DNA of 38,014 nucleotides, taken from the IMG/VR virus record IMGVR_UViG_3300035670_000623, positions 1-38,014 of that record; one strand, written 5' to 3'. Within the stretch, counting starts at the first letter, position 1, and the number at the start of each line of letters is the position of its first letter. The translations under genes were made by a program, and so were the position numbers. Below the pieces are notes generated by a model. That model saw only the letters and a list, made by a program, of their open reading frames with translations. It ran no database searches and had not been told where the DNA came from. The DNA is from a virus. Its lineage: Duplodnaviria; Caudoviricetes. Below, piece after piece: positions 4,881 through 29,646 of this stretch.

Positions 4881-7480
4881 TGCTGGCTAATAAGCTCTTA
4901 GGTGCGTCACAGGCTGCTGTAGAGGCTAACTACGTTGATGACGTATTTTCAACGTATCTTTACACTGGTAATGGCTCTGCTCAGACCATCAACAACGGTA
5001 TCGCTCTTGGGGATGATTACGGCGGCAGCGTCTATTTTGATGGTACGGGGGATTATTTAAGAACTGCTAGTACGTCCGCAGTTGCTTTCGGCACTGGCGA
5101 TTTTACGTTAGAGGCATGGGTAAACCCCACAGCGACACCATCAACATACAGAGGAATTTTAGGTACTTACGATGGTTCAAGTGGAGTAATTATAGAAATA
5201 ATAAATGGGGTGTGGTGTTATTGGGCGGGAGTGCATACTTCTAGTGGGGTGACTGCTACGTTGGGTTCGTGGGCTCATGTTGCGCTAACACGAAGCGGCA
5301 CAACAATCAGGTTTTTTGTAAATGGGGCTCTAACCAATACGGAAACTGCTCACACGACAAATTACGGTTCTTCTCCGATTACCGTTGGCTCAATAGATAC
5401 TAGTGGCTCATTTGATTTCAACGGTTATATTTCAAATGCCCGAATTGTTAAGGGAACGGCAGTTTACACATCTGCATTTACGCCACCTACGTCACCATTA
5501 ACTGCAATCACAAACACTAGTTTCTTAACCTGCCAATCTCCAAACTTAACGACTGACAATTCATCTAGCGCACTCTCTATCACAGTAACAAACGCTATTG
5601 CTCAGAATGGTGGTGGTCCATTTACCGATTCGACAGCTAACAAAGGCGGTCTAGTTTGGCTCAAAGGTCGTTCTGGTGCTACTGACCATGCACTTTACGA
5701 TACTGCTCGCGGTGCAACATTTGACCTTGTATCTAACTCGTCTGCTGCACAGACAACACAATCAACTGGGCTAACTGCTTTCAATAGCAACGGATTTAGT
5801 CTAGGTGCGTTAGCAAAGCTAAATACAAACGCTGCTACCTACGCCTCATGGACATTCCGCAAGCAAGAAAAGTTCTTTGACGTAGTGACGTATACGGGCA
5901 CTGGAGCTAACCGAACGGTAGCTCATAACTTAGGTTCGGTTCCGGGGTGCATCATTGTCAAGAGCACAGATACGGCTACTAGTTGGACGGTCTATCACAG
6001 CAGTTTAGCAAACACTGAATACCTGATACTTAACACTACAACAGCTAAGCTTACGGGAACAGACCGCTGGAACAGCACGACACCGACCAGCACAGAGTTC
6101 AGTCTAGGCACTGCTACAACCGTTAACGCTTCTGGCGGAACTTACGTCGCCTACCTATTCGCTCACGACGCAGGTGGCTTTGGCGCGGCTGGTACGGACA
6201 ATGTGATTAGTTGTGGAAGCTATACGGGCAATGGTTCTGCGACAGGACCGACAATAACGCTTGGCTATGAGCCACAGTGGATTTTAATTAAAAGGTCTGT
6301 TGGCGGTACTGGTGGTTGGGTTCTTCACGACACGATGCGCGGTTTGCCAACGGGCGGGAATTCCAACTATTTGCAAGCAAACACAAGCGACGCAGAGGCT
6401 GCACCAGCAAATTATGTAGATGTAAACGCAACTGGCTTCCAATTAAAAACAACAGGTGTAAGCTGGAACGCATCTGGCTCTACCTACATCTACATCGCCA
6501 TCCGTCGCCCGATGAAAACGCCGACGAGTGGGACGGAGGTGTATGAAGGTACGGCGTATACAGGCAATGCCGCTACTGAACGGCAAATAGGTTCGACGGT
6601 TCTAATGGATATGCTTTTGCTGTCTTGTCGTAGCGCCGACTCTCAAGGTTGGACTACTTACGCGCACTATGTGTTTGATAGGTTGCGTGGCGATAGATGG
6701 TCATTGGCAACTACGTCTATATCCGTTGAATCTGGCGACTGGACGACCTATATAGATTTTGACAAAAACATAGGTTGGGATACCAGCTCAACTACAACAG
6801 ATCAAACTTATCTAAACAAAACAGGCTCAACATTTGTAAGCAATGTATTTAAGCGTGCTCCCGGCTTTTTTGATATTGTTTGCGATACAGGAACAAACGC
6901 AGCACACACGATTACGCATGGTCTAGGCGTAGTTCCTGAGTTGATGATTCGCAAGAAACGGAACTCAGCGACTAACTCAAATTGGGTTGTATGGCATACG
7001 TTGTTTAGTGGGACAGGCAACTACGTCTATCTTAATGCGACTACTGCCGCAACCTCTAACACAGCTCTTTGGACTACAACCCCACCGACATCGACTGTAT
7101 TTAGTGTTGGGACAGGTTCAAACACAAATAACACTGGCGACACTTACGTCACTTACCTATTTGCTACTGTTGCTGGCGTATCCAAAGTAGGCAGTTACAC
7201 AGGTACAGGAACAACGCAAACCATCAACTGTGGGTTTACGGCAGGAGCTAGGTTTGTGATGATTAAGCGTACAAGCTCATCAGGAGATTGGTACGTCTGG
7301 GATACAGCTAGAGGCATTATTAGTGGTAACGATCCTTACCTGCTTATGAACTCAACTGCGGCTGAAGTTACCAATACCGATTACATTGACCCTGCGAACT
7401 CTGGTTTTGAGATCAGCAGCACAGCACCAGTGCAAATTAACGGCAACGGTGAAACCTTCATCTATCTAGCTATTGCTTGA
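4880..7480 (+). CDS. Large tail fibre / receptor-binding protein with a ConA-like (LamG) lectin domain and repeated YTGxG modules
   Basis: LamG motifs DFTLEAWV, WAHVALTRSG, FNGYISNARI; repeated YTGNG/YTGTG...TYVAYLFA modules. Confidence 0.8.
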   Translation: MLANKLLGASQAAVEANYVDDVFSTYLYTGNGSAQTINNGIALGDDYGGSVYFDGTGDYLRTASTSAVAFGTGDFTLEAWVNPTATPSTYRGILGTYDGSSGVIIEIINGVWCYWAGVHTSSGVTATLGSWAHVALTRSGTTIRFFVNGALTNTETAHTTNYGSSPITVGSIDTSGSFDFNGYISNARIVKGTAVYTSAFTPPTSPLTAITNTSFLTCQSPNLTTDNSSSALSITVTNAIAQNGGGPFTDSTANKGGLVWLKGRSGATDHALYDTARGATFDLVSNSSAAQTTQSTGLTAFNSNGFSLGALAKLNTNAATYASWTFRKQEKFFDVVTYTGTGANRTVAHNLGSVPGCIIVKSTDTATSWTVYHSSLANTEYLILNTTTAKLTGTDRWNSTTPTSTEFSLGTATTVNASGGTYVAYLFAHDAGGFGAAGTDNVISCGSYTGNGSATGPTITLGYEPQWILIKRSVGGTGGWVLHDTMRGLPTGGNSNYLQANTSDAEAAPANYVDVNATGFQLKTTGVSWNASGSTYIYIAIRRPMKTPTSGTEVYEGTAYTGNAATERQIGSTVLMDMLLLSCRSADSQGWTTYAHYVFDRLRGDRWSLATTSISVESGDWTTYIDFDKNIGWDTSSTTTDQTYLNKTGSTFVSNVFKRAPGFFDIVCDTGTNAAHTITHGLGVVPELMIRKKRNSATNSNWVVWHTLFSGTGNYVYLNATTAATSNTALWTTTPPTSTVFSVGTGSNTNNTGDTYVTYLFATVAGVSKVGSYTGTGTTQTINCGFTAGARFVMIKRTSSSGDWYVWDTARGIISGNDPYLLMNSTAAEVTNTDYIDPANSGFEISSTAPVQINGNGETFIYLAIA

Positions 7481-8463: not shown

Positions 8464-10106
8464 ACTTTGGTGAATGGCTACCGGATCAGCCGAGTATCAT
8501 TCAGGCGGTATCGGATGCAGTGAACTGTTATCCAGTTGCTAATGGTTATGCGCCTATTCCAAATATTGAGCCATATCCTAACGATGAGACTCAGGCTTCC
8601 GAGACTTTGCTAACTTGCTTTGGTGGTAAGTATGGCGGTCAGAATGTCTTGTTTGCGGCTAGTGCCTCAAAGATTTTCAAGTTTGATACGACGAATAACT
8701 CTTACGTTGATGTCAGCAAAAGCGGTGGTTATGCGGCTTTATCGTGGGATGTAACGCAGTTTGGCTCGGTAGTGATTGCTGCTGACGGTAATGCCAAGCT
8801 GCAGGCGTTTGATTTAGGCTCAAGCACGGCTTTTGCGGATTTGTCGGCTGATGCGCCTATTGCCAAGTTTGTCACAGTTGTCCGAGATTTCGTTGTAGCA
8901 GCTAACGTTGCTGGTGATGAATCTAAGGTTTATTGGTCTGACATCAATAACGAGCTTGTCTGGACTCCATCCTCGGCTGTTCAGGCTGATGCTCAGGTGC
9001 TTCCTGACGGTGGTGACATTACTGGTATCGCTGGTGGCGAATACGGGCTGATCTTCTTGGAAAAGGCAATCTACCGGATGACGTATGCTGGTAGTCCGTT
9101 CTTCTTCCAGTTTGACGCTATCTCTCGGTCTTTGGGATGTATCGCTAACGGCTCGATTGCTCAGTTATCAGGGATTACCTACTTCCTAGCGGACGATGGT
9201 TTCTATGCCTGTAACGGTCAGACAGTCACCCCGATTGGTGCTGAGAAGGTTGATCGTTGGTTCTTTGAGAATGTCTCGATTAGCAAAGTAACAAGTGAGA
9301 TGAGTGCAACGGTTGATCCTGTACGTTCGCTCATTATTTGGGTAGTGCCGACTGCCGCAGGTAACAAATTACTTATTTACAGCCAGAAGCTAAACCGCTG
9401 GTCTTATTCGACCATTAACGTTCAGTCGATCTCTTATGTGGTGACTTCCTCTGCTTCCCTAGAGGCATTGGATAAACTCTCGATTACTCCGGGAACGAAT
9501 ACGTTAGCAGGTACTTACACTCGTACAACTACGACTGTTACCGTAACGGCAAACAATCATGGGCTAAATACCAATGCCTATGTTTACTTTGATGCAACGT
9601 CTGGCGGTGCTGCTGACGGGTTTTATCAAATTACCAAGGTAGATGACAACAGTTTCACGTTTACTACGGTAGATTCAGGCACGATTACGACGAGCAACTG
9701 TACTTTATCGTTACCTTCCATTGATGCTGCATCGATTACGCTGGATGATCGTGCTTATGCAGGTGGAACTTGGTTCTTAGCAGCGGTTTTTGGTCAGAAA
9801 GTGTACGGATTTACGGGCGATTATGCTGAAGCCTCTGTTACGACGAACGATATAGACATTGGTAGGAGCTTAATGACTCTAGTTAAGCCGATTGTTGACA
9901 ATGGTAGCGGTGATGTAGCGGTATCTGGTCGAGTGTTGCTCCAAGATAACGTTACTTTTACGGATTATGCCTCGCCAGACTCGATTAATCGGGTGTCTGT
10001 GCGGTCTAGCGGTAATTATCACAGGGTAAAGGTACGTCCTACGGGTAGTAACTGGCGTACTGTGGTGGCTGTTGATGTCGATGTAACGAAAGCGGGTGAT
10101 CGATGA
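8445..10106 (+). CDS. Tail hub / packaged-DNA stabilisation protein (P22 gp10-like nozzle)
   Basis: FGEWLPDQP N-terminus, beta-propeller-like pattern, YFLADDGFY and IGAEKVDRWF motifs. Confidence 0.7.
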   Translation: MATTRINFGEWLPDQPSIIQAVSDAVNCYPVANGYAPIPNIEPYPNDETQASETLLTCFGGKYGGQNVLFAASASKIFKFDTTNNSYVDVSKSGGYAALSWDVTQFGSVVIAADGNAKLQAFDLGSSTAFADLSADAPIAKFVTVVRDFVVAANVAGDESKVYWSDINNELVWTPSSAVQADAQVLPDGGDITGIAGGEYGLIFLEKAIYRMTYAGSPFFFQFDAISRSLGCIANGSIAQLSGITYFLADDGFYACNGQTVTPIGAEKVDRWFFENVSISKVTSEMSATVDPVRSLIIWVVPTAAGNKLLIYSQKLNRWSYSTINVQSISYVVTSSASLEALDKLSITPGTNTLAGTYTRTTTTVTVTANNHGLNTNAYVYFDATSGGAADGFYQITKVDDNSFTFTTVDSGTITTSNCTLSLPSIDAASITLDDRAYAGGTWFLAAVFGQKVYGFTGDYAEASVTTNDIDIGRSLMTLVKPIVDNGSGDVAVSGRVLLQDNVTFTDYASPDSINRVSVRSSGNYHRVKVRPTGSNWRTVVAVDVDVTKAGDR

Positions 10107-20327: not shown

Positions 20328-20625
20328 CCTTGATAAATACGCCTTCCTTGTTCAAGTACCCTTTACGGTCTTTAATCTCGTTATAAGCAGCCCTTAGACA
20401 CTGCTTTACATCGACATCTTCAATAGCAGCAGCCACAATAAGACATACAAGAACGTCGCCAATTCCGTCAATAATTGCGTCTCTGTCTCGTTTAATGACC
20501 GCATCGGCTAGTTCCCCCATTTCTGAAACTGCTTTTAGAAGCTGTGTCTTAGAGTCCGAATTCCTGATGATGCCTCTAGCTTCAGCCCACCTAACGACTT
20601 CTAATTCCGTAATCTCAAAGCTCAT
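20314..20625 (-). CDS. MazG-like nucleotide pyrophosphohydrolase
   Basis: WAEARG..QLLKAVSEMGELA..IDGIGDVLV..AYNEIKDRKG motifs. Confidence 0.85.
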   Translation of the reverse strand: MSFEITELEVVRWAEARGIIRNSDSKTQLLKAVSEMGELADAVIKRDRDAIIDGIGDVLVCLIVAAAIEDVDVKQCLRAAYNEIKDRKGYLNKEGVFIKDGQK

Positions 20626-20813
20626 AAAAACTCCTCAATTTCTGCGATAGGCATATCAAAAGCCTTGTGTATTGCGATCTTTGTCTCAGCCGACACTCCG
20701 TTATGCCCGTTACGAATCTTGCTGATCGTTGGCATGGATACCCCGATGCGGATAGCCAGTTGACGGTCATTCTTGATTTCGTAGGTTTCTTTTAGATAGT
20801 CCAACAGTTTCAT
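20622..20813 (-). CDS. Small XRE/Cro-like HTH regulator
   Basis: NDRQLAIRIGVSMPTISKIRNG helix-turn-helix. Confidence 0.8.
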   Translation of the reverse strand: MKLLDYLKETYEIKNDRQLAIRIGVSMPTISKIRNGHNGVSAETKIAIHKAFDMPIAEIEEFL

Positions 20814-21678: not shown

Positions 21679-22332
21679 TTACCCCTTAGTAAATTTCTTG
21701 ATTGCACTACGTTGCTTGCTATCCAACTGTGACCAGAGTGCAGTCTTCCAGTCTGCATCTAGCTCCAGAGAATTGATATACTCCACAGCCTCAGATACCT
21801 GATCCTTGTGAATCAGCATAATTACATCGGCTGCATAGCTTTTGATTTCTTCCTGTGACTGTTCGTCTAACGTATCGAATACGTCTTTCGTTACAGGCTT
21901 AGATGACTTAGGTTCTTCTGCACCAGTGGTCGCGTCTAATGCGTCATGCTCACAGATAGCCAGAGCCATAACGAGAAGATAACGAGTAATGTAGGTAATC
22001 GATGCGCCTAGATTCTGAACTTCATGGCAACCCTTGAGTTGAGCCGAAGCCATAGGGCAGGTGAACTTAGCGCATCCACCATCCTCAGTGTCAATAACGC
22101 GCATTGTCGCTAAGTCGCTGGTGAACTCTAGCGTATGGCAGAGCTTTAATTCAGCAAATATTGAGTTGACTGTAGGCAGGAAATCGGTCAGTTCAAAGTA
22201 GCGATACCCTGCGAACTTGTTGTGTCCTGACTTCTTTAGCTCGATATTCTGGAGCTTGACTCTGGCTTTCTGTAGCTTTTCATACACAAGCCACTGGCGA
22301 TGCTCCTCTTGCTCCTTTTGATTGTTCATCAT
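21679..22332 (-). CDS. erf: ERF-family single-strand annealing recombinase
   Basis: KSGHNKFAGYRYFELTD and QNLGASITYITRY motifs; adjacent to ssb. Confidence 0.8.
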   Translation of the reverse strand: MMNNQKEQEEHRQWLVYEKLQKARVKLQNIELKKSGHNKFAGYRYFELTDFLPTVNSIFAELKLCHTLEFTSDLATMRVIDTEDGGCAKFTCPMASAQLKGCHEVQNLGASITYITRYLLVMALAICEHDALDATTGAEEPKSSKPVTKDVFDTLDEQSQEEIKSYAADVIMLIHKDQVSEAVEYINSLELDADWKTALWSQLDSKQRSAIKKFTKG

Positions 22333-22509
22333 TTATCCCTTAGCGAATTTTTTATTGAAAATAATATTGTTAGGTTGTGCTGCCTGAATAGTCTGTACCT
22401 TTGTAGCCTCCTTTTGCTCCTTTCTAATGCGATCAAAAGTCTTACGAATATTCGTTTTAGTTGACGGAACATACTTAAACTCTTTGTCTAGGATGCAGGG
22501 AAATGTCAT
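22333..22509 (-). CDS. 58-aa basic hypothetical protein (not in ORF track)
   Basis: MTFPCILDKEFKYVPSTKTNIRKTFDRIRKEQ...; ATGA overlap upstream and abuts the erf start. Confidence 0.7.
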   Translation of the reverse strand: MTFPCILDKEFKYVPSTKTNIRKTFDRIRKEQKEATKVQTIQAAQPNNIIFNKKFAKG

Positions 22510-22613
22510 AAGTTATCCAGTAGCATAGAAAGGATGAATATTGCCACGATTACCCACAGGGCATGACGGTCAATGAAGTCCGCTAGTTTATCGTCTGGAT
22601 TAAATAGTTTCAT
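22506..22613 (-). CDS. 35-aa single-pass membrane microprotein (not in ORF track)
   Basis: MKLFNPDDKLADFIDRHALWVIVAIFILSMLLDNL; AGGAG RBS; ATGA overlaps on both sides. Confidence 0.65.
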   Translation of the reverse strand: MKLFNPDDKLADFIDRHALWVIVAIFILSMLLDNL

Positions 22614-22936
22614 GCTTGGCTCCTAAAGTGTTCTTCTGCTTCCCGGTCTTTGCGTTCCTGATACAGCCTGTCTTGATGCTCCATATACTCATCTTCTGCG
22701 GTTGGCTGGTAAGGCGGTAGTCGCTGCTCCTTAACGATACGGTCAATCATTCCGACTAGAAACCGCTGCATACCATCCTTGAGTGCGTCTGCGTCTTTTT
22801 GATGTCTTGACCAGACAAACAGAAGTTCGCTAAATTCTTCCTCAATGCTTGCAGCATCCATGTGGCACAAAACATCGTTAGGATGTCCGTCAAGCAGCTC
22901 CGAGATCAGGTATTGTTCAAACTCTTGGTCATTCAT
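22610..22936 (-). CDS. Acidic hypothetical protein, first gene of the leftward operon
   Basis: ORF track; TAGGGA RBS. Confidence 0.7.
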   Translation of the reverse strand: MNDQEFEQYLISELLDGHPNDVLCHMDAASIEEEFSELLFVWSRHQKDADALKDGMQRFLVGMIDRIVKEQRLPPYQPTAEDEYMEHQDRLYQERKDREAEEHFRSQA

Positions 22937-22966
22937 ATTTATTCCCTAGTGAGTTACCGCTTCGAA

Positions 22967-23040
22967 ATAGTGCCACAGATCAACAGGTTAGTGCAAATAT
23001 ATTTCTATTAGTAAATGTAAACCTATAGAAACATTCTATT
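22967..23040 (-). promoter_or_regulatory. Leftward promoter with upstream AT-rich ATAG-repeat block
   Basis: On minus: TTGCAC-18 nt-(TGn)CACTAT. The upstream block is homologous to 27722-27770. Confidence 0.55.
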
Positions 23041-23161
23041 ACCAAACGTCAACATTCTGCGATAATGAAATACGAAAAATACTTAAAACAATTGCAAGAA
23101 ACTAAGACTAAGCCGGATAAACAGCCGGAAGTTAGAAAAACAACACCACGAGGGCAGACCA

Positions 23162-23338
23162 TTGAAAGACGATCATTCAAAATCCTTAGTAGCAACGTCA
23201 AGCGGCAAAACTGGAACGACTAAGACCTATAACTTTGGTCTACGGTACTGCGCTGGATGTAAGCGATCCAGATCAGCGATTCAGTTCGGCAACCTAGAGA
23301 TTTGCAAGATTTGCCAATTACGAAACGTTAAGGTATAG
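23162..23338 (+). CDS. 58-aa zinc-finger microprotein (not in ORF track)
   Basis: TTG start after GAGGG; ...RYCAGCKRSRSAIQFGNLEICKICQLRNVKV has two CxxC pairs. Confidence 0.6.
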   Translation: MKDDHSKSLVATSSGKTGTTKTYNFGLRYCAGCKRSRSAIQFGNLEICKICQLRNVKV

Positions 23339-23339
23339 T
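23311..23339 (+). promoter_or_regulatory. Sigma70-type promoter for RNA element 1 and the replication operon
   Basis: TTGCCA-17 nt-TATAGT; the predicted start site falls at the 5' hairpin. Confidence 0.7.
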
Positions 23340-23343
23340 TTTA

Positions 23344-23450
23344 ATCGTGCTTGGCAGCGCGATAACAGGTAAGCCCTAGAAGGGACTCTGCTGGTTACCT
23401 ACCAGTCTGCCAACACCTTAATCGGTGAGAGTCTCTCCTAGGGCTTTTTT
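23344..23450 (+). ncRNA. C4/CI-antisense-like RNA element 1
   Basis: 5' hairpin with loop TTGGCA. Three-way junction closed by AAGCCCTAG/CTAGGGCTT plus a U-tract; its junction strand CTGCCAA is complementary to the loop. Confidence 0.75.
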
Positions 23451-23465
23451 CGTTTGGAGAAAGCT

Positions 23466-23684
23466 ATGTTGAAATTTCGTGGATCAGAAGGATTAGAGGT
23501 TTACATTAGCGACGTAGGTTGCTTAGTATTAAAGCAAGAAAGTTTTGAGTTTGGCAAGGAAGTATCTGTCGTTTTGACCCCTGAACAGGCTTGGCACGTT
23601 AAACAGTTGATTGACGATTTTCACGAGGAAATGGTCAACGAATGGAACGAAGGTCTGATTCAGGAGGATCAAGAAAATGCCTAA
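23466..23684 (+). CDS. Acidic hypothetical protein
   Basis: ATG at 23466 after GGAG; overlaps the replication gene start. Confidence 0.65.
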   Translation: MLKFRGSEGLEVYISDVGCLVLKQESFEFGKEVSVVLTPEQAWHVKQLIDDFHEEMVNEWNEGLIQEDQENA

Positions 23685-24384
23685 ACGTCCATCATTCCAA
23701 TTTTATCCCTCCGATTGGCTACGGGATACAGCACTAAGGTCATGCTCAACAGGAGCCAGAGGTCTATGGATAGACATGATCTGTTTTATGCACGAAGGTA
23801 ATCCTTACGGACACTTGAAGGTTGGGGATAAGGTTATCCTTCCAGACAACCTTGCCCGTATGGTTGGGGAAACCTTAGAGGTTGTTGAAGGTTGGCTTAA
23901 AGAGTTACATCATGCAGGAGTGTATGACCTTGCTGACGATGGGACTATTTGTAGCCGCAGGATGATACGAGATGAAAACCTTAGACAAATCAGAGCGTTA
24001 GGTGGAAAACTTGGTGGTAATCCTGCTCTAATGAAGGATGATAAGGTTAACCTTAAGGTTATCCAAGAGGTTAAGCAAAATCCAACCCCTTCATCTTCAT
24101 CTTCATCTTCATCTTCAAAAGAACAATATAACGAGCATTTTTTGAAATTCTGGAATGTCTATCCAAACAAGAAAGCTAAGGAAGCTGGATGGAAAGCATT
24201 TAAGAAATTAAAAGCTGATGAAACATTTGTTTCTATGTTGATAAATGCTGTTCGTGAACAAGGATTGCTATCCAAAGATGTTCAATACGTTCCTCATGCG
24301 TCAACGTGGCTGAATGGCAAACGATGGGAAGACGAAATCACTAAACCTAACGTTGATGTTTCTATGGGGAGACGGGTTCTATGA
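23677..24384 (+). CDS. Phage replication initiator protein
   Basis: FQFYPSDWL N-terminal domain, poly-Ser linker, C-terminal FWNVYPNK..K...HASTWLNGKRWEDE. Confidence 0.8.
   Translation: MPKRPSFQFYPSDWLRDTALRSCSTGARGLWIDMICFMHEGNPYGHLKVGDKVILPDNLARMVGETLEVVEGWLKELHHAGVYDLADDGTICSRRMIRDENLRQIRALGGKLGGNPALMKDDKVNLKVIQEVKQNPTPSSSSSSSSSKEQYNEHFLKFWNVYPNKKAKEAGWKAFKKLKADETFVSMLINAVREQGLLSKDVQYVPHASTWLNGKRWEDEITKPNVDVSMGRRVL
24042..24117. repeat. Iteron-like AGGTTA repeats/palindromes and (TCATCT)n tract; candidate origin
   Basis: AGGTTA at 24044, 24056 and 24068; palindrome TAAGGTTAACCTTA at 24042-24055; TCATCT repeats at 24091-24117. Confidence 0.5.
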
Positions 24385-24809
24385 TTGGAGACTTGCTAAA
24401 CAAACTCGAAAAGGTGCGCGGTTCTAAAGGTCGCTGGACTGCTTGTTGTCCTGCTCATGGTGACAAATCACCAAGCCTTGCCATAACGGAAACTGATGAC
24501 GGTCGAATCCTGCTCAAGTGCTTTGCCGGATGTTCAGCGCATCAAATCGTTGAAGCGGTTGGAATGGACTTGACAGACCTATTTCCTAACGACAACAATT
24601 TAGACCGATTAAAGGCAAACCATATCAACAAACCTGTAAGGAGACCGTTTTACGCAACAGACCTGCTGAAAATAATCCAATTTGAGGCACTTATTACGTC
24701 CATAGCGGCGTTTGACGTAAGCGAGGGTAGGGAAGTATCAGCCGAGGATAGAAAACGGCTTAAAACGGCTCTATCCAGAATTAACGAAGCAGTAAGTTAC
24801 ATTAACTAG
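24381..24809 (+). CDS. Primase-type CHC2 zinc-finger protein (no TOPRIM domain)
   Basis: CCPAHGDKSPSL...LLKCFAGC; only 142 aa. Confidence 0.8.
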   Translation: MIGDLLNKLEKVRGSKGRWTACCPAHGDKSPSLAITETDDGRILLKCFAGCSAHQIVEAVGMDLTDLFPNDNNLDRLKANHINKPVRRPFYATDLLKIIQFEALITSIAAFDVSEGREVSAEDRKRLKTALSRINEAVSYIN

Positions 24810-24817
24810 GGGAAACT

Positions 24818-25204
24818 ATGACTATCACACTAACCCGCGAGGAAGCGCAGCAAGTGCTGGATGCGTTGGACGAGGTTTTTGACCATAATTATTGGCAATC
24901 TTATGAAACAGCAGTTTATTTGCTCCGCGCCAGACTTGCGCAGCCTGAACCGGAGCCGGTGGCTTGGGCAGATAAGTACGACATTGACCGAGAAGGGCAT
25001 GACTTCCATGTAAGCCGACAACAACCAGCAAAAGATGGAGCGCCACTCTACACCGCCCCACCACAGCGCGAATGGCATGGGCTGACGGATAAGGAAATGG
25101 AATATTTGTACGAGCAACACCACAACCAGTATGGCGAATGTGAATCAGTATGGTATGGATATGAACGAGCCATCGAAGCCAAGTTGAAGGAGAAGAACAC
25201 TTGA
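24818..25204 (+). CDS. Hypothetical phage protein (EPVAW / PLYTAP / W.GLTD module family)
   Basis: Motifs PEPVAW, PLYTAPPQREWHGLTDKE, RAIEAKLKEKN. Confidence 0.7.
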   Translation: MTITLTREEAQQVLDALDEVFDHNYWQSYETAVYLLRARLAQPEPEPVAWADKYDIDREGHDFHVSRQQPAKDGAPLYTAPPQREWHGLTDKEMEYLYEQHHNQYGECESVWYGYERAIEAKLKEKNT

Positions 25205-25479
25205 CTATCGAGCTAACGAGAGATGAGGCTGAGGAGCTACTAAAGATTCTAAAGCTGATGTACACAAACCATGCCCTAACGAAAGCCCTTGCTGATCGAC
25301 TAGCCGGAGAACCGCTGATTGAGTTTCCGAAAGAGCCTGAGCCAGAGGAGCCGGTTGCGGAATGGAAAGACTTATCTACCGCAGAGGTTAAGGCTATCTG
25401 GAACCTAACGAAAAAGCCTAGCGAGTTCGCGGCGATGCTATTGGCAAAGATTAAGGAGAGAAATGACATTCTTCGATGA
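25201..25479 (+). CDS. Hypothetical protein, paralogous to the upstream gene
   Basis: MTIELTRDEA..PEEPVAEWKDLS..LAKIKERN parallels the 24818 ORF. Confidence 0.7.
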   Translation: MTIELTRDEAEELLKILKLMYTNHALTKALADRLAGEPLIEFPKEPEPEEPVAEWKDLSTAEVKAIWNLTKKPSEFAAMLLAKIKERNDILR

Positions 25480-25882
25480 CCTAAAGCGTGGTGTAGCCAT
25501 CGAGATGCAGGTGCTTGCAAGTATCCGTAAAAAGTATCCATGCGCTACGTTGATTGAAGGCTACAAGGGTTACGACATCTGGATACCGGAGACAGGCACA
25601 GGGGTTGAGGTGAAGTACGATCCGATGTCTAAAGAGACAGGTAATTTGGTTGTTGAGGTCGAGATGTCTGGTAATGCATCGGCATTACTAGCAACCGAGG
25701 CTAAGTGGTGGGTTTTTTACGATGGTGACGTTTTTTTATGGGTCAGACCTAGAGACATTATTCACTGCATTATCGAGAATAAATTGGTATATGTAGAGTT
25801 TGTAGGTGCTGGAGATCGGAACAAAAAGAAAGCGTTTTTGATTAAAAAAGAACTACTGTTCAAATATGGGGAGAAACGATGA
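25463..25882 (+). CDS. Putative PD-(D/E)XK nuclease
   Basis: E..YDIW..VEVKYD..GNLVVEVE pattern. Confidence 0.6.
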   Translation: MTFFDDLKRGVAIEMQVLASIRKKYPCATLIEGYKGYDIWIPETGTGVEVKYDPMSKETGNLVVEVEMSGNASALLATEAKWWVFYDGDVFLWVRPRDIIHCIIENKLVYVEFVGAGDRNKKKAFLIKKELLFKYGEKR

Positions 25883-26877
25883 GCATTGAAGCAAGGGCGA
25901 TAGAACTGGACGAGGCTAGGAAAGCCCGAATCCTGAAATCGGAAACCATTGACGTTGAGAAGTACCTTCACGCTAATGATGTGACGATCCGGGTAAGGAA
26001 GGCTAGGGATTGGCTGGAGTCAGTTAAAGAATCCTACCTATCGGAAACGGTCGAGCGAAAAGTTGTTATGCCTTGGACTAAGACGCATGATTCCTTTGCC
26101 TATCGTGATGGCGAGGTAACGGTTTACGCTGGTTCTAACGGTGGCGGAAAATCTTTAATCACTGGTCAAATCGCGCTGCACTTGGTTAAGCAGGGTCAAT
26201 CGGTTTGTATAGCGTCATTCGAGATGAAGCCAGAGAGGACTCTACAACGGATGCTCCGACAGTTCTCCGGTGAATCGCTGGATGATCCTTTGACTCACGA
26301 TAGGGCAGGATTTATAACGAAGATGGTTGATAGGATGGAGTCGTTCTTGTCCGACAAGATGTACCTGTACGACCAGCAGGGAACTACGTCACCAGAGAAG
26401 GTGATTGCAATGTCAAGGTACTGCGCCACAGAGCTAGGCGTTAAGCACATCATCATCGACAGCCTAATGAAGTGCGTTAAGAACGAGGATGACTTTAACG
26501 GGCAGAAGTCTTTTATCGACGAGCTAACGGCACTAGCGAGAGATCATAACGTCCATGTTCACCTAGTACACCATATCCGCAAGCAGCAGACGGACGAGAC
26601 ACAGCCGAACAAGAATGACCTAAAAGGGTCTGGAAGTATCTCAGATCAGGTGGATAACGTCTTTTTGGTGTGGCGCAACAAGAAGAAGGAAAACGCTAAG
26701 AACCGGGGTGAGCAGATAGACGAGACTCAGCCGGATACTTACCTAATGTGCGAGAAGCAGCGGAACGGTGACGGTCAGGAATGGTACGGACTTTGGTACG
26801 ACAGTCTAAGCCAGCAATTTGTGGAGAGGATAGGGGCGAGAATTGACTTTGACAACCGAGGAAGTTTTAGAGCATAG
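25879..26877 (+). CDS. SF4 (DnaB/T7 gp4-like) replicative helicase
   Basis: Walker A AGSNGGGKS, SFEM, IIIDSL, LVHHIRK, LKGSGSI, KQR. Confidence 0.9.
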   Translation: MSIEARAIELDEARKARILKSETIDVEKYLHANDVTIRVRKARDWLESVKESYLSETVERKVVMPWTKTHDSFAYRDGEVTVYAGSNGGGKSLITGQIALHLVKQGQSVCIASFEMKPERTLQRMLRQFSGESLDDPLTHDRAGFITKMVDRMESFLSDKMYLYDQQGTTSPEKVIAMSRYCATELGVKHIIIDSLMKCVKNEDDFNGQKSFIDELTALARDHNVHVHLVHHIRKQQTDETQPNKNDLKGSGSISDQVDNVFLVWRNKKKENAKNRGEQIDETQPDTYLMCEKQRNGDGQEWYGLWYDSLSQQFVERIGARIDFDNRGSFRA

Positions 26878-27061
26878 GCATCGTTGTGAAGTTCGCGCTG
26901 TATTAGCTTGGAGAGTAGAGGATAGGGGTAAGGCGATGAGCTACCTATCTTTGGTCAGGCAGAAGCGAGGCGATCAAGCTGCGGATAGGTTAGAGAAAGA
27001 TTGCCGGACTCAGTGGGAACGTGGGAACCGAGGCGAGAAAGGGGATTGGCGTGGTCTATAA
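26843..27061 (+). CDS. Hypothetical protein
   Basis: HRHRCEVRAVLAWR; overlaps both neighbours. Confidence 0.6.
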   Translation: MTLTTEEVLEHRHRCEVRAVLAWRVEDRGKAMSYLSLVRQKRGDQAADRLEKDCRTQWERGNRGEKGDWRGL

Positions 27062-27332
27062 ACGGGTGGATTCCAATCAAGTCGAGATTGTCAAAGAGTT
27101 AAGACGCTTAGGTATGGAGGTCGAGCATCTCCACGGGGTAGGCAAGGGCTGTCCTGACATCTTAGTAGGCTGGAAGGGCAAAAACGTCCTGCTGGAGATA
27201 AAACGGGATGAGAAAGCCAAACTAACCCCAGATCAGGTGCTATGGCATTGCTCATGGAAAGGGCAGGTAACTGTTGTCAGTAACGTAATTGACGCGATAA
27301 AAGCGGTGAAAGAGGTTTGCAGGGTTGACTGA
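27051..27332 (+). CDS. VRR-NUC-like PD-(D/E)XK nuclease / resolvase
   Basis: RVDSNQ..GKGCPDILVG..LLEIK..LTPDQ; GTG at 27051 after AAGGGG is preferred. Confidence 0.75.
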   Translation: MVYKRVDSNQVEIVKELRRLGMEVEHLHGVGKGCPDILVGWKGKNVLLEIKRDEKAKLTPDQVLWHCSWKGQVTVVSNVIDAIKAVKEVCRVD

Positions 27333-27353
27333 TACTGTCCAAATAGGTACTAT
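27325..27353 (+). promoter_or_regulatory. Sigma70-type promoter for RNA element 2
   Basis: TTGACT-17 nt-TACTAT; the predicted start site (~27360) falls at the 5' hairpin. Confidence 0.75.
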
Positions 27354-27359
27354 GGTCTT

Positions 27360-27468
27360 GTCTATGTGACGGCGTAGATGAGCTAAAGCCCTTAAAGCTT
27401 TGGTTTTCCTCCCTTAAGTGGGAAACGTGCCGTCACACGTGGAAAGCCAAGACTTTAGGGGCTTTTTT
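27360..27468 (+). ncRNA. C4/CI-like kissing-loop RNA element 2
   Basis: Loops TGACGG (27367-72) and CCGTCA (27430-35); ~24-bp closing stem followed by a U-tract. Confidence 0.75.
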
Positions 27469-27475
27469 GCGTTTA

Positions 27476-27707
27476 GACCGTACTGGTCGCGTTAGAAATG
27501 AACCCATGTTCGGGGTTGCTGCCAAGGAAACCGAGTGCGCTTTATTGACAGGACGGCGCAGCAGACTTGCTACAGGTACTTGCACGAACAAGGCAGAACG
27601 GTTGATATACGGATGAGCCACGATACGGTTGCCTTGGAAGATGAATGTAGCCACGAGAGTGATTAGCCAGTGTGGGAAGTGGTTGAATATCAACCCCTCG
27701 TCCTGTC
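27476..27707 (+). ncRNA. Candidate ~250-nt structured non-coding RNA
   Basis: Nested stems GACAGGACG/CGTCCTGTC, GCTACA/TGTAGC and CAAGGCA/TGCCTTG plus local hairpins; no credible ORF. Confidence 0.5.
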
Positions 27708-27721
27708 CTATTGCCTAATGT

Positions 27722-27798
27722 AAATAGTATTAAGCTATAGCAATACATTAACCTATAGAAATAAATATGTTTACGCGAGGCAATGGATTATTTAGGAT
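27722..27798 (+). promoter_or_regulatory. Rightward promoter with upstream ATAG-repeat block
   Basis: TTTACG-17 nt-TAGGAT; the upstream block is similar to the reverse complement of 22991-23040. Confidence 0.6.
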
Positions 27799-27835
27799 GT
27801 GCTTGTACCGACTTGGTACTAACTAGGGGAGCAAC

Positions 27836-28024
27836 ATGGAATCAATCAAAATCGAAGGCGTAGAGCAGCACACAGGCATTTACGTTGACACTATTGCTGA
27901 AGATGTCTGGATCAACATTATCGTAAGAAATGGCACTGCGAATCTCTGCATAACTCCTGAAAACGCTGAGAAGCTGATCGAGGCTATCCGAATCGCTATC
28001 GGCGAGGTTGAATATGCAGGTTGA
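27836..28024 (+). CDS. Hypothetical protein
   Basis: Strong RBS AGGGGAG; first gene after the promoter. Confidence 0.7.
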   Translation: MESIKIEGVEQHTGIYVDTIAEDVWINIIVRNGTANLCITPENAEKLIEAIRIAIGEVEYAG

Positions 28025-28038
28025 TATATAATTAAATC

Positions 28039-28144
28039 GTCATTGTGCCAGCATTGACAACACTAAAGCCCTTTAGCTTTGGTTTTCAATCCCTTAAGTG
28101 GGAACGTGCTGGCACACGGAAAACCAAAACTAGAGGGTTTTTTT
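28039..28144 (+). ncRNA. C4/CI-like kissing-loop RNA element 3 (leader of the HNH gene)
   Basis: Homologous to element 2; loops TGCCAG (28046-51) and CTGGCA (28109-14); TATAAT at 28027-32. Confidence 0.75.
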
Positions 28145-28648
28145 ATGGAAAAAATTTGGAAACAAATACCAAATTGGAAAGAATACGAAATTTCTAATTA
28201 TGGTGAAGTGAGAAGAATTGAGAAAAATTGTGGGGCAACAGTAGGAAAAACATTAAAACCATCAAAACTTAAAAATGGTTATTTAAAAGTGTCTTTATGT
28301 AGAAATTCAAAAAGAAAAGAGTTCTTAATTCATAGGCTTGTTGCAATGACATTTATTGGGGATGCAGATGGTATGGATGTGTGCCATATAGATGGGACAA
28401 GAAATAATAATAAATTGTCAAATTTAAGAATAGATACAAGAAAAGGAAACATGAGAGATGCAGTTGAACATGGAACAATGATTAAAGGAAGCAAAGTAGG
28501 AACTAGTAAGTATAAAGAAGATTTCATTTTAAAAATAAAAGAGCATTTTAAAAATGGATCAACAGTTGTTGAATTGCATAATAAATTTAACATTCCGAAA
28601 CCAACTTTGTACGGAATTAAAAATAATGTGAATTGGAAATGGCTATGA
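28145..28648 (+). CDS. NUMOD4-HNH homing endonuclease with C-terminal HTH
   Basis: WKQIPNWKEYEISNYGEVR (NUMOD4), IHRLVAMTF..VCHIDGTRNNNKLSNLR..N (HNH); strongly AT-rich. ATG at 28145 is preferred. Confidence 0.9.
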   Translation: MEKIWKQIPNWKEYEISNYGEVRRIEKNCGATVGKTLKPSKLKNGYLKVSLCRNSKRKEFLIHRLVAMTFIGDADGMDVCHIDGTRNNNKLSNLRIDTRKGNMRDAVEHGTMIKGSKVGTSKYKEDFILKIKEHFKNGSTVVELHNKFNIPKPTLYGIKNNVNWKWL

Positions 28649-28977
28649 GTAAAGACGTAGACCCTCATGCTGCAATTGATTTTATGATTAAAAATGCTAA
28701 TGCTTACGCTAAAGCAAAAGCTAATGTTACGTATCTTGAGGAATGGAAAAAATCCAAGAAAGCAATCCTGTTCAGTCAGGCTATCGGGAATACAGTCGCA
28801 GACAGGGAAAATCAGGCTTATGCTCATCCAGAGTACCAAGCCTTACTAAAAGGGCTTCAGGCGGCTGTAGAGGCTGCTGAGGAGCTTAGGTGGAAGTTGA
28901 TTGCAGCACAGGCTAGGATCGATGTCTGGCGGTCTCAGGAGGCTTCTAATCGAACAATGGATAGGGTGACGCAATGA
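28645..28977 (+). CDS. Coiled-coil phage protein (possibly UvsY-like)
   Basis: ATGA overlap with the HNH stop; helical pattern. Function is uncertain. Confidence 0.6.
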   Translation: MSKDVDPHAAIDFMIKNANAYAKAKANVTYLEEWKKSKKAILFSQAIGNTVADRENQAYAHPEYQALLKGLQAAVEAAEELRWKLIAAQARIDVWRSQEASNRTMDRVTQ

Positions 28978-29249
28978 CCATAGATGACATTATCCGCGTG
29001 GCAAGAGAGGCTGGATTCGATTTGACCATGTTTGAGTTTTCTCTGGGTTTTGTTACTCACGGAACACATGAAGAATTTGAACGCTTCGCCGCCTTAGTCG
29101 CAGCAGCAGAGCGTGAGGCAATAGCGCAAATGATTGAAGATTCCCCGCCATTAGTTTCTTTTGCTCAGAATGAAATGGGTGGCTGTTTGACTTGTGGGTT
29201 TACACCCAAGCTGGCAGCGTTAACTATCCGCGAAAGGGGTAAGCCATGA
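28974..29249 (+). CDS. Hypothetical protein (ERFAALVAAAERE family)
   Basis: Common accessory phage motif; ATGA overlaps. Confidence 0.7.
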   Translation: MTIDDIIRVAREAGFDLTMFEFSLGFVTHGTHEEFERFAALVAAAEREAIAQMIEDSPPLVSFAQNEMGGCLTCGFTPKLAALTIRERGKP

Positions 29250-29440
29250 CTGAAATACAAGATAACGTGCCAGACGATAGCAATTTGGCACAATGTGAAT
29301 ATTGCGGTTGGGTAGTAGATTGGGATGAGGTTCCGAGGGCTAGGGATATATCTGGCGAGATCGTTACCTGCTGCGAGGAGTGCAACGAGGGCGAGAGTTT
29401 CGTCAATTATCCGAGCCAGAGATTTAATCAAAAAGGGTAG
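29246..29440 (+). CDS. Small acidic zinc-finger protein
   Basis: CEYC...CEEC. Confidence 0.6.
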   Translation: MTEIQDNVPDDSNLAQCEYCGWVVDWDEVPRARDISGEIVTCCEECNEGESFVNYPSQRFNQKG

Positions 29441-29466
29441 AATGATGGCAGCTATCGTGAGGCTAT

Positions 29467-29646
29467 ATGCAGCAGCCTTTATTCGAGAATCTGCCCGTAA
29501 AGATCAGGAAACTGACTCAGCGTGAGATAGACGCTTTGATGGAGCGTTGCTTTGGAAATCTTGAGTATTACCACGAGCCTGAGATCAGGAAATTTGCCAA
29601 AGAAATCCAGAGGGCTATGCTAAATGTGGAGAAAACGACAGATTGA
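29467..29646 (+). CDS. 59-aa hypothetical protein (not in ORF track)
   Basis: MQQPLFENLPVKIRKLTQREIDALMERC...; GAGG RBS; stop overlaps the next start. Confidence 0.6.
   Translation: MQQPLFENLPVKIRKLTQREIDALMERCFGNLEYYHEPEIRKFAKEIQRAMLNVEKTTD

Follow-up and report, generated by a model that had tools for sequence, protein, structure and literature searches.

The phage record IMGVR_UViG_3300035670_000623 of IMG/VR (Duplodnaviria; Caudoviricetes) contains three short leader-like elements, each placed just behind a promoter sequence and each carrying a 5′ hairpin loop with a complement further inside the same element, which raises the question of what such self-complementary leaders do. The whole stretch of 38,014 nucleotides (nt) was analysed and is called the window; an earlier note, made from its sequence alone, had compared the elements with the C4 RNAs of phages P1/P7 and the CI RNA of phage P4 and proposed a set of orthogonal, sequence-addressed attenuators. 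We found that they are leaders of two families, type 1 (element 1) and type 2 (elements 2 and 3), in which the loop, termed here the barcode or code, and its complement change as matched pairs across more than 100 related copies; therefore, the leader is likely an RNA-controlled off switch.

Architecture of the three elements

The elements and their upstream signals are:

23311..23339, + strand: sigma70-type promoter of element 1, TTGCCA-17-TATAGT (promoter score 10/12)
23344..23450, + strand: element 1, type-1 leader (by fold and by covariation in homologues)
27325..27353, + strand: sigma70-type promoter of element 2, TTGACT-17-TACTAT (promoter scan)
27360..27468, + strand: element 2, type-2 leader; 5′ loop TGACGG 27367-72, inner loop CCGTCA 27430-35, U-tract 27463-68
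28027..28032, + strand: -10 box TATAAT of element 3, without a clear -35 (sequence reading)
28039..28144, + strand: element 3, type-2 leader; 5′ loop TGCCAG 28046-51, complementary loop CTGGCA 28109-14

The presence of a 5′ hairpin and a long stem that closes into a U-tract around two inner hairpins was confirmed for all three elements at these positions, with folding z scores of -5.0, -6.9 and -5.1 for elements 1, 2 and 3, respectively, and 0/200 shuffles folding equally well. Element 1 consists, in order, of the 5′ hairpin with loop a (TTGGCA, 23351-56), linker b (AGGTAA, 23367-72) and the long stem P1, which is closed by the U-tract (23445-50) and holds a first inner hairpin with loop b′ (TTACCT, 23395-400), the junction segment a′ (23407-13) and a second inner hairpin. 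The 5′ loops were exactly complementary to an internal segment in all three elements, and the extended complement is expected by chance in the shuffled inner region at 0.0035, 0.0002 and 0.0001 in elements 1, 2 and 3. The earlier note had placed this complement inside the junction, which is correct for element 1 (TGCCAA, 23408-13), whereas in elements 2 and 3 it is the loop of the second inner hairpin, forming a loop-loop kiss that can be extended to 11 bp. It had also missed a second long-range pairing of element 1, between linker b and inner loop b′. In element 3, the 3′ strand of the stem contains a Shine-Dalgarno-like GAGGG (28133-37), and the U-tract (28138-44) adjoins an ATG.

Full sigma70-type promoters precede elements 1 and 2, while element 3 is absent from the sigma70-type promoter scan list and has the -10 box only; the promoter-proximal position as such is conserved in homologues. 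The shared architecture was upheld for elements 2 and 3, which are one family, and homology of element 1 to them was not established by the cross-model expectation (E) values of 0.016-0.33 between the type-1 and type-2 models. Profile searches of the window with both models gave no further copies except antisense shadows. The proposed orthogonality of the codes is plausible but imperfect, as a structure-blind duplex estimate gave the element-1 loop region equal strength with its own partner and with element 3. The 5′ loops of elements 1 (23351-56) and 3 (28046-51) are complementary over 5 nt, and so are their inner partners, which may allow cross-talk or may be chance.

Covariation of the long-range pairings in homologues

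Homologues were collected from viral contigs by pattern and protein-anchored scans, a structural descriptor and profile searches. With a cut-off of at least 45 bits, 80 type-1 matches (61 distinct) and 115 type-2 matches (74 distinct, one of them cut by a contig end) were obtained. The a and a′ segments of type 1 were complementary in 61/61 distinct homologues, with 6 codes, and the type-2 code in 73/73 parsed ones, with 19 codes that include matched 7-nt loops, both loops changing length together. Thus, the compensatory loop changes first seen between the window's copies hold across the homologues. The linker of type 1 paired with the first inner loop over a mean of 6.0 nt, compared with 4.2 in non-cognate combinations.

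In non-redundant alignments of 47 rows (type 1) and 55 rows (type 2), 98.8% and 97.2% of the paired cells could pair, well above shuffled and slid controls, and 32/41 and 11/29 pairs were compensatory, respectively. The type-1 a/a′ pairing was 100% paired with 3 compensatory columns and b/b′ was 97% paired with 5/5 compensatory; 0/500 shuffles reached values as high, and the slid controls gave 33-42%. The type-2 kiss was 97.9% paired, its 7 misses being 7-nt codes out of register, and the measure of further pair types gave no excess over shuffles in the 55 type-2 rows. G-U pairs are absent from a/a′ and from the type-2 code but present in the stems. A second type-2 pairing, of the linker with the first inner loop, was considered and rejected; the first inner hairpin is variable and often a tetraloop.

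Because the profiles were trained on copies selected for complementarity, samples not selected for pairing were also examined. Loci reached through a structured RNA that lies downstream of element 2 (RNA A, described below) had a type-2 leader in 42/45 cases, of which 38 were exact, 3 exact by eye and 1 imperfect. Among metagenome loci (98 of 100), 8/8 true matches showed exact code pairing, and GenBank MW202462.1 holds a type-1 copy with both pairings. By blastn, GenBank phages gave no match for the window's elements or for a type-2 homologue, and one pair of records matched a type-1 homologue. Neither leader type was found in the cultured relative Methylophilales phage Venkman, and a type-1 pattern scan of bacterial genome contigs (37/64 parts) gave at least 120 matches, with no real element among those listed.

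The upstream and downstream signals are conserved as well. A -10 box lies 10-12 nt ahead of the code in 44/61 type-1 homologues and 13 nt ahead in 52/71 type-2 homologues, 27/60 and 25/71 leaders, respectively, have a promoter ahead of them, against a background of 1%, and a U-tract with at least 6 T in 8 nt follows in 59/61 and 59/73. As a and a′ amount to short inverted repeats at a distance of 55-65 nt, the complements could also stem from DNA-level copying between inverted repeats without any RNA function. This origin appears highly improbable: the strand is fixed by the G-U pairs of the stems, the distance to the promoter is conserved, as is the U-tract, and changes are slower in the longer stem arms, which are inverted repeats too. 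Other leader types, unrelated to these but likewise ending in a U-tract and having a 5′ hairpin whose loop is the complement of a segment further in, were noticed upstream of RNA A in L584, L606 and L607, and in L107 (about 6550-6650) and L127 (about 8904-9006).

Code turnover and a putative antisense attenuator

The number of changes per position was counted on trees built from the scaffold columns of the leader alignments. Changes numbered 14-22 in the three most variable code columns of type 2 and 20-21 in the two b/b′ pairs of type 1 that vary most, compared with 9-22 at unpaired positions and a mean of about 3-4 for closing-stem pairs; the a/a′ pairs of type 1 were slower, with 4-10 changes. 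The whole type-2 code changed 38 times in 55 sequences, and 44/55 had a code different from that of the nearest scaffold neighbour. This turnover suggests diversifying selection on the codes.

The fold, the promoter-proximal position, the U-tract, the strictly Watson-Crick covariation of the long-range pairings (two in type 1, one in type 2), the fast change of the codes and the downstream content have to be accounted for together. We give a little better than an even chance to a self-contained antisense attenuator, in which pairing in cis would block the terminator and the accumulated terminated leader would restore termination in trans. Transcription is predicted to start at the 5′ hairpin, with the barcode near the 5′ end and its complement inside the three-way junction, so that both would be made ahead of the 3′ strand of the closing stem. 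Pairing of code and complement in the nascent RNA would then block this terminator stem and give read-through at first, by default. A closed stem would leave the complement free for another transcript, and terminated leader RNA, with its 5′ part trimmed, would build up and bind the barcode of new transcripts in trans, giving code-specific termination. Such a device could serve as a timer or copy-number brake for each unit and could also block relatives of the same code, which would drive the codes apart.

The geometry of the leaders bears on the sign of this control. Linker b of type 1 borders the base of the 17-bp stem (about 48 Å) and overlaps it, b′ lies beyond the far end, and because of this placement b/b′ and the full terminator stem are probably mutually exclusive in one molecule. 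The type-2 kiss, which can extend to 11 bp by means of invariant bases of the stem top, would ring the 5′ strand of the stem. Either pairing would hinder the terminator. Control of the opposite sign, in which cis pairing aids the terminator or pauses the polymerase and a trans RNA or a phage protein turns a default-OFF unit ON (as IsrK does on its own long isoform), is regarded as unlikely. PMC4825925 gives an example of a terminated leader that acts on its own read-through form, and a toxic HNH endonuclease would favour default OFF; however, the b/b′ and closing-stem geometry argues for exclusion and not for help, the replication genes behind type 1 are needed on entry, and no antiterminator protein was found among the 63 open reading frames (ORFs) of the window.

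Several points weigh against the attenuator. The terminator fold of the whole leader is very stable (-44 to -52 kcal/mol), so read-through requires a kinetic or topological trap. A second target site, as known for C4 and CI, was not found in the window or in the type-1 and type-2 loci: bipartite second sites numbered 5 against 6.6 expected in 56 type-1 loci, and type-2 second sites 0 against 0.3 expected within 500 nt in 52 loci, with none evident in the window. Without 5′ trimming, the terminated RNAs would titrate each other. The role that the P4 and P1 RNAs play in lysogenic immunity is not directly transferable, because the phages carrying these leaders appear to be non-integrating (integrase in 1/50 records, that is, the window's and 49 related ones, and in 0/34 of the near-complete ones). 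Diversifying selection, moreover, stays short of proof, because a scaffold-column tree lowers the change counts of the scaffold columns themselves and recombination could inflate those of the codes.

The antisense promoter that a counter-transcript would need was not conserved either in a scan with the sigma70 consensus only (11/61, scattered, in type 1 and 3/72 in type 2, against a background of 10%), and with neither a second target nor such a promoter found, the leader itself is the only evident target. These two negatives, together with the fact that all covariation is seen within one leader, agree with a folding switch acting in cis only, in which pseudoknot and terminator compete during transcription, read-through is fixed or depends on a protein or on speed, no RNA acts in trans and the codes drift. 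We consider such a switch rather improbable, as it leaves unexplained why double substitutions in the code are fixed at about the rate of changes in unpaired positions although the stems next to them evolve slowly, and why the two type-2 copies of the window have different codes.

Comparison with known RNA systems

No Rfam family matched the leaders at the gathering score in the window or in 15 loci. The C4, c4-2 and c4-a1b1 models, which the earlier note had asked to be searched, gave no match at E ≤ 10 in 22000-29500 nor at E ≤ 1 in 11 loci. A match to Phe_leader was rejected as weak (E 0.92, 24.9 of 55 bits). We found no description of these leaders in the literature; the c4-2, int-alpA and Betaproteobacteria-1 motifs are described in PMC5737381, and the supplements of that paper and of PMC10690425 may list the leaders as an unnamed candidate.

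The anatomy is C4-like, as had been suggested. According to PMC5320573, C4 is a three-stem junction with exposed recognition segments, and a 4-nt difference sets apart the specificities of P1 and P7; the P1/P7 comparison also draws on PMC8201110 and PMC2864571. Like C4 (RF01695; c4-a1b1, c4-2), the leaders have a three-stem junction whose exposed segments, which set specificity in C4, vary between relatives, and a target in their own leader (a1b1 in C4) covaries with the recognition part (a′b′), with both segments in type 1, in the order a, b ... b′, a′, and one segment in type 2. Unlike C4, they have no downstream a2b2 site over a ribosome-binding site, and their closing stem is itself a terminator-like hairpin. 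C4 is processed by RNase P at a GG(W) start of the closing stem; the leader stems begin with A(A)G in most rows, and a GGT before the type-1 stem is not conserved. The leaders also front replication genes, an RNA or an HNH gene instead of icd-ant, and the phages carrying them appear to lack an integrase. Thus, the leaders are not members of the C4 family, having no model match, no downstream target and another gene context.

The P4 CI RNA pairs with seqA and seqC and causes premature termination (PMC4825925). It derives from the leader of a replication operon and has the 5′ end of its own transcript as a target (same source); type 1, and not type 2, resembles it in heading a replication operon and in its seqA-like pairing. 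No seqC-like downstream site is present, the whole device takes about 105 nt, and a genome can hold several differently coded copies. The IsrK RNA of Gifsy-1 is likewise a terminated leader isoform acting in trans on its own read-through transcript, but it activates translation of a leader ORF, whereas the phage leaders have no leader peptide and no sequence likeness to it. Plasmid antisense attenuators and incompatibility RNAs (pT181/pIP501, CopA-CopT and the IncI/IncB pseudoknot) share loop-loop recognition, control of replication genes and specificity set by loops. Their antisense RNA comes from the opposite strand, while in the phage leaders code and complement share one strand and an antisense promoter was not found to be conserved.

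To our knowledge, immunity by RNA alone has been described in only a few temperate phages of enterobacteria. The leaders are real and widespread, and represent a compact variant of the C4/CI kind. They form two families that are not in the catalogues, are common in aquatic phages with an apparently lytic life style, and combine a scaffold that hardly changes with at least 19 natural codes. If the trans action is true, they would supply orthogonal transcription switches ready for use and allow a direct test of whether superinfection exclusion drives code diversification.

Genes and RNAs behind the leaders

The features directly downstream of the three elements are:

23466..27332, + strand: unit 3′ of element 1, with an unknown ORF, replication initiator, primase Zn-finger, small ORFs, DnaB-like helicase and VRR-NUC-like nuclease (ORF annotation)
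27472..27720, + strand: RNA A, non-coding structured RNA of about 250 nt directly after element 2 (covariation)
28145..28648, + strand: NUMOD4/HNH endonuclease gene directly 3′ of element 3 (protein annotation)

An initiator, primase or helicase homologue lies within 1.5 kb in 64/72 type-1 loci, a count partly biased by the many loci fetched via the initiator query. Type 1 was present at 33/76 initiator loci, and many of the other 43 have, by eye, other self-complementary leaders or a Cro-like gene there. When 7 initiator loci without type 1 were scanned, the Rfam motif int-alpA (RF02996) was found upstream of the initiator in 3 above threshold and in 1 below it, a fifth match lying elsewhere; it takes the type-1 slot in these relatives and has no match to the window's elements or RNA A. 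The variable loop of the int-alpA RNAs (L065 3098-3166, L068 5474-5542, L078 4162-4231 and L091 5569-5642) mirrors the sequence just 5′ of the next ribosome site, which suggests a possible antisense role for this orphan motif. In L059, L093 and L105, two-hairpin leaders with complementary loops stand upstream of the initiator gene, with matched differences between L059 and L093.

Element 2 fronts a structured RNA and not a protein gene, a feature that the earlier note had missed. RNA A has a long helix (27547-55/27699-707) and pseudoknot candidates at 27600-07/27688-95 and about 27506-13/27531-37, for which cognate pairing was 7.1 against 5.5 for non-cognate and 6.7 against 5.9, respectively. 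In 15 sequences, 24/42 predicted pairs were compensatory, while as a single sequence RNA A folds no better than shuffles (z 0.28). It has no match in Rfam, and comparison by eye with RNase P RNA, group I/II introns, T-box and HEARO gave no convincing fit. Behind 73 distinct type-2 copies, a non-coding RNA starting with GACCG was found in 53 (by a loose pattern), an insert followed by such an RNA in 2, and a Betaproteobacteria-1-like RNA in 5 (one of them confirmed at 93.7 bits); in 6 the U-tract adjoins the start codon of an HNH gene, and the remaining 7 have other sequence. Betaproteobacteria-1 (RF02932) thus takes the slot behind the type-2 leader in relatives, with no match to the window's elements or RNA A. 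In the 3 RNA-A loci that lack type 2, its place is taken by a different terminator leader that is also self-complementary, so that such a leader lies directly or nearly directly upstream in 45/45.

Just behind type-2 leaders lie pseudoknotted RNAs of 250-300 nt that make up a diverse set (families A, B and C) with a common 5′ domain and no Rfam match (window 27472-27720; L040, L248, L448, L450, L454, L474 and L518). In L452, L502, L527, L311 and L551, inserts of 180-200 nt bounded by inverted repeats lie between the leader and RNA A or B, apparently as tandem structured RNAs, and L492 and L538 have still other non-coding payloads.

The HNH proteins of the 6 other type-2 leader records with the ATG at the U-tract have 39-61% identity to that of the window. 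Leaders with the code TGCCAG that are identical or nearly so stand before HNH genes sharing only about 40% identity (window 28039-28648 compared with L026, L249, L258 and L512), so the leader and the nuclease gene reassort. The strong U-tracts, the conserved scaffold sequence and the geometrically possible reciprocal pairing of two copies would also suit a terminated RNA of about 105 nt that is itself the product, as a compact knot or as head-to-tail dimers or rings, with a constitutive terminator and downstream sequence read by leakage or from other promoters. The leader upstream of RNA A in every such locus, the HNH start that adjoins the U-tract with its ribosome site in the stem, and the position of type 1 before replication genes make this unlikely.

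Of 71 close relatives, 55 lack both the leader and RNA A, which marks the type-2 cassettes as accessory. Among 50 records, mostly picked for holding an element, 25 carry type 1 and 22 type 2, with 7 of these carrying both, and 10 lack either type; apart from the window, the only case seen with two type-2 copies, there was never more than one copy of each type. Extending the attenuator to these non-integrating freshwater phages, we tentatively suggest that a portable, barcoded, RNA-only attenuator could serve them as an addressing system, in which each code would define an exclusion group among co-infecting relatives, a genome could carry several switches, and type 2 would gate interchangeable large knotted RNAs (RNA A and its kin, Betaproteobacteria-1) whose dose the phage would have to limit. 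The link to large orphan RNAs was unexpected. The leaders place the orphan motifs Betaproteobacteria-1 and int-alpA in a regulatory setting and indicate another family of large pseudoknotted RNAs whose expression is apparently gated.

Phage context

The 38-kb window has terminal repeats and is a complete phage record. Erf, SSB and a 63-aa CI/Cro-type helix-turn-helix (HTH) protein are encoded in a short early block that runs leftward, and a rightward run holds replication genes, small genes, terminase, portal, head, tail and lysis genes. The nearest named relatives of the capsid are the Manatee Spring phages (79%) and Methylophilales phage Venkman (55%), and the named relatives closest to this phage are from fresh water. 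A LexA-type (S24) repressor peptidase was found in 0/50 of the records, the 63 ORFs of the window gave no antirepressor match, and no tRNA or tmRNA was found. The suggestion that the RNA set replaces a protein repressor is unsupported, because the type-2 cassettes are accessory; the phage also encodes the small HTH protein, and some records hold neither leader type. The stand-alone HTH gene (20622-20813, - strand) lies at the far end of the leftward operon and is frequent in relatives. In L249, L253, L256 and others, small swappable genes split by a repeated hairpin unit, CCGGGGGAAACCCCGG, lie between the VRR-NUC gene and the homologue of ORF 27836, in an arrangement resembling a cassette hotspot.

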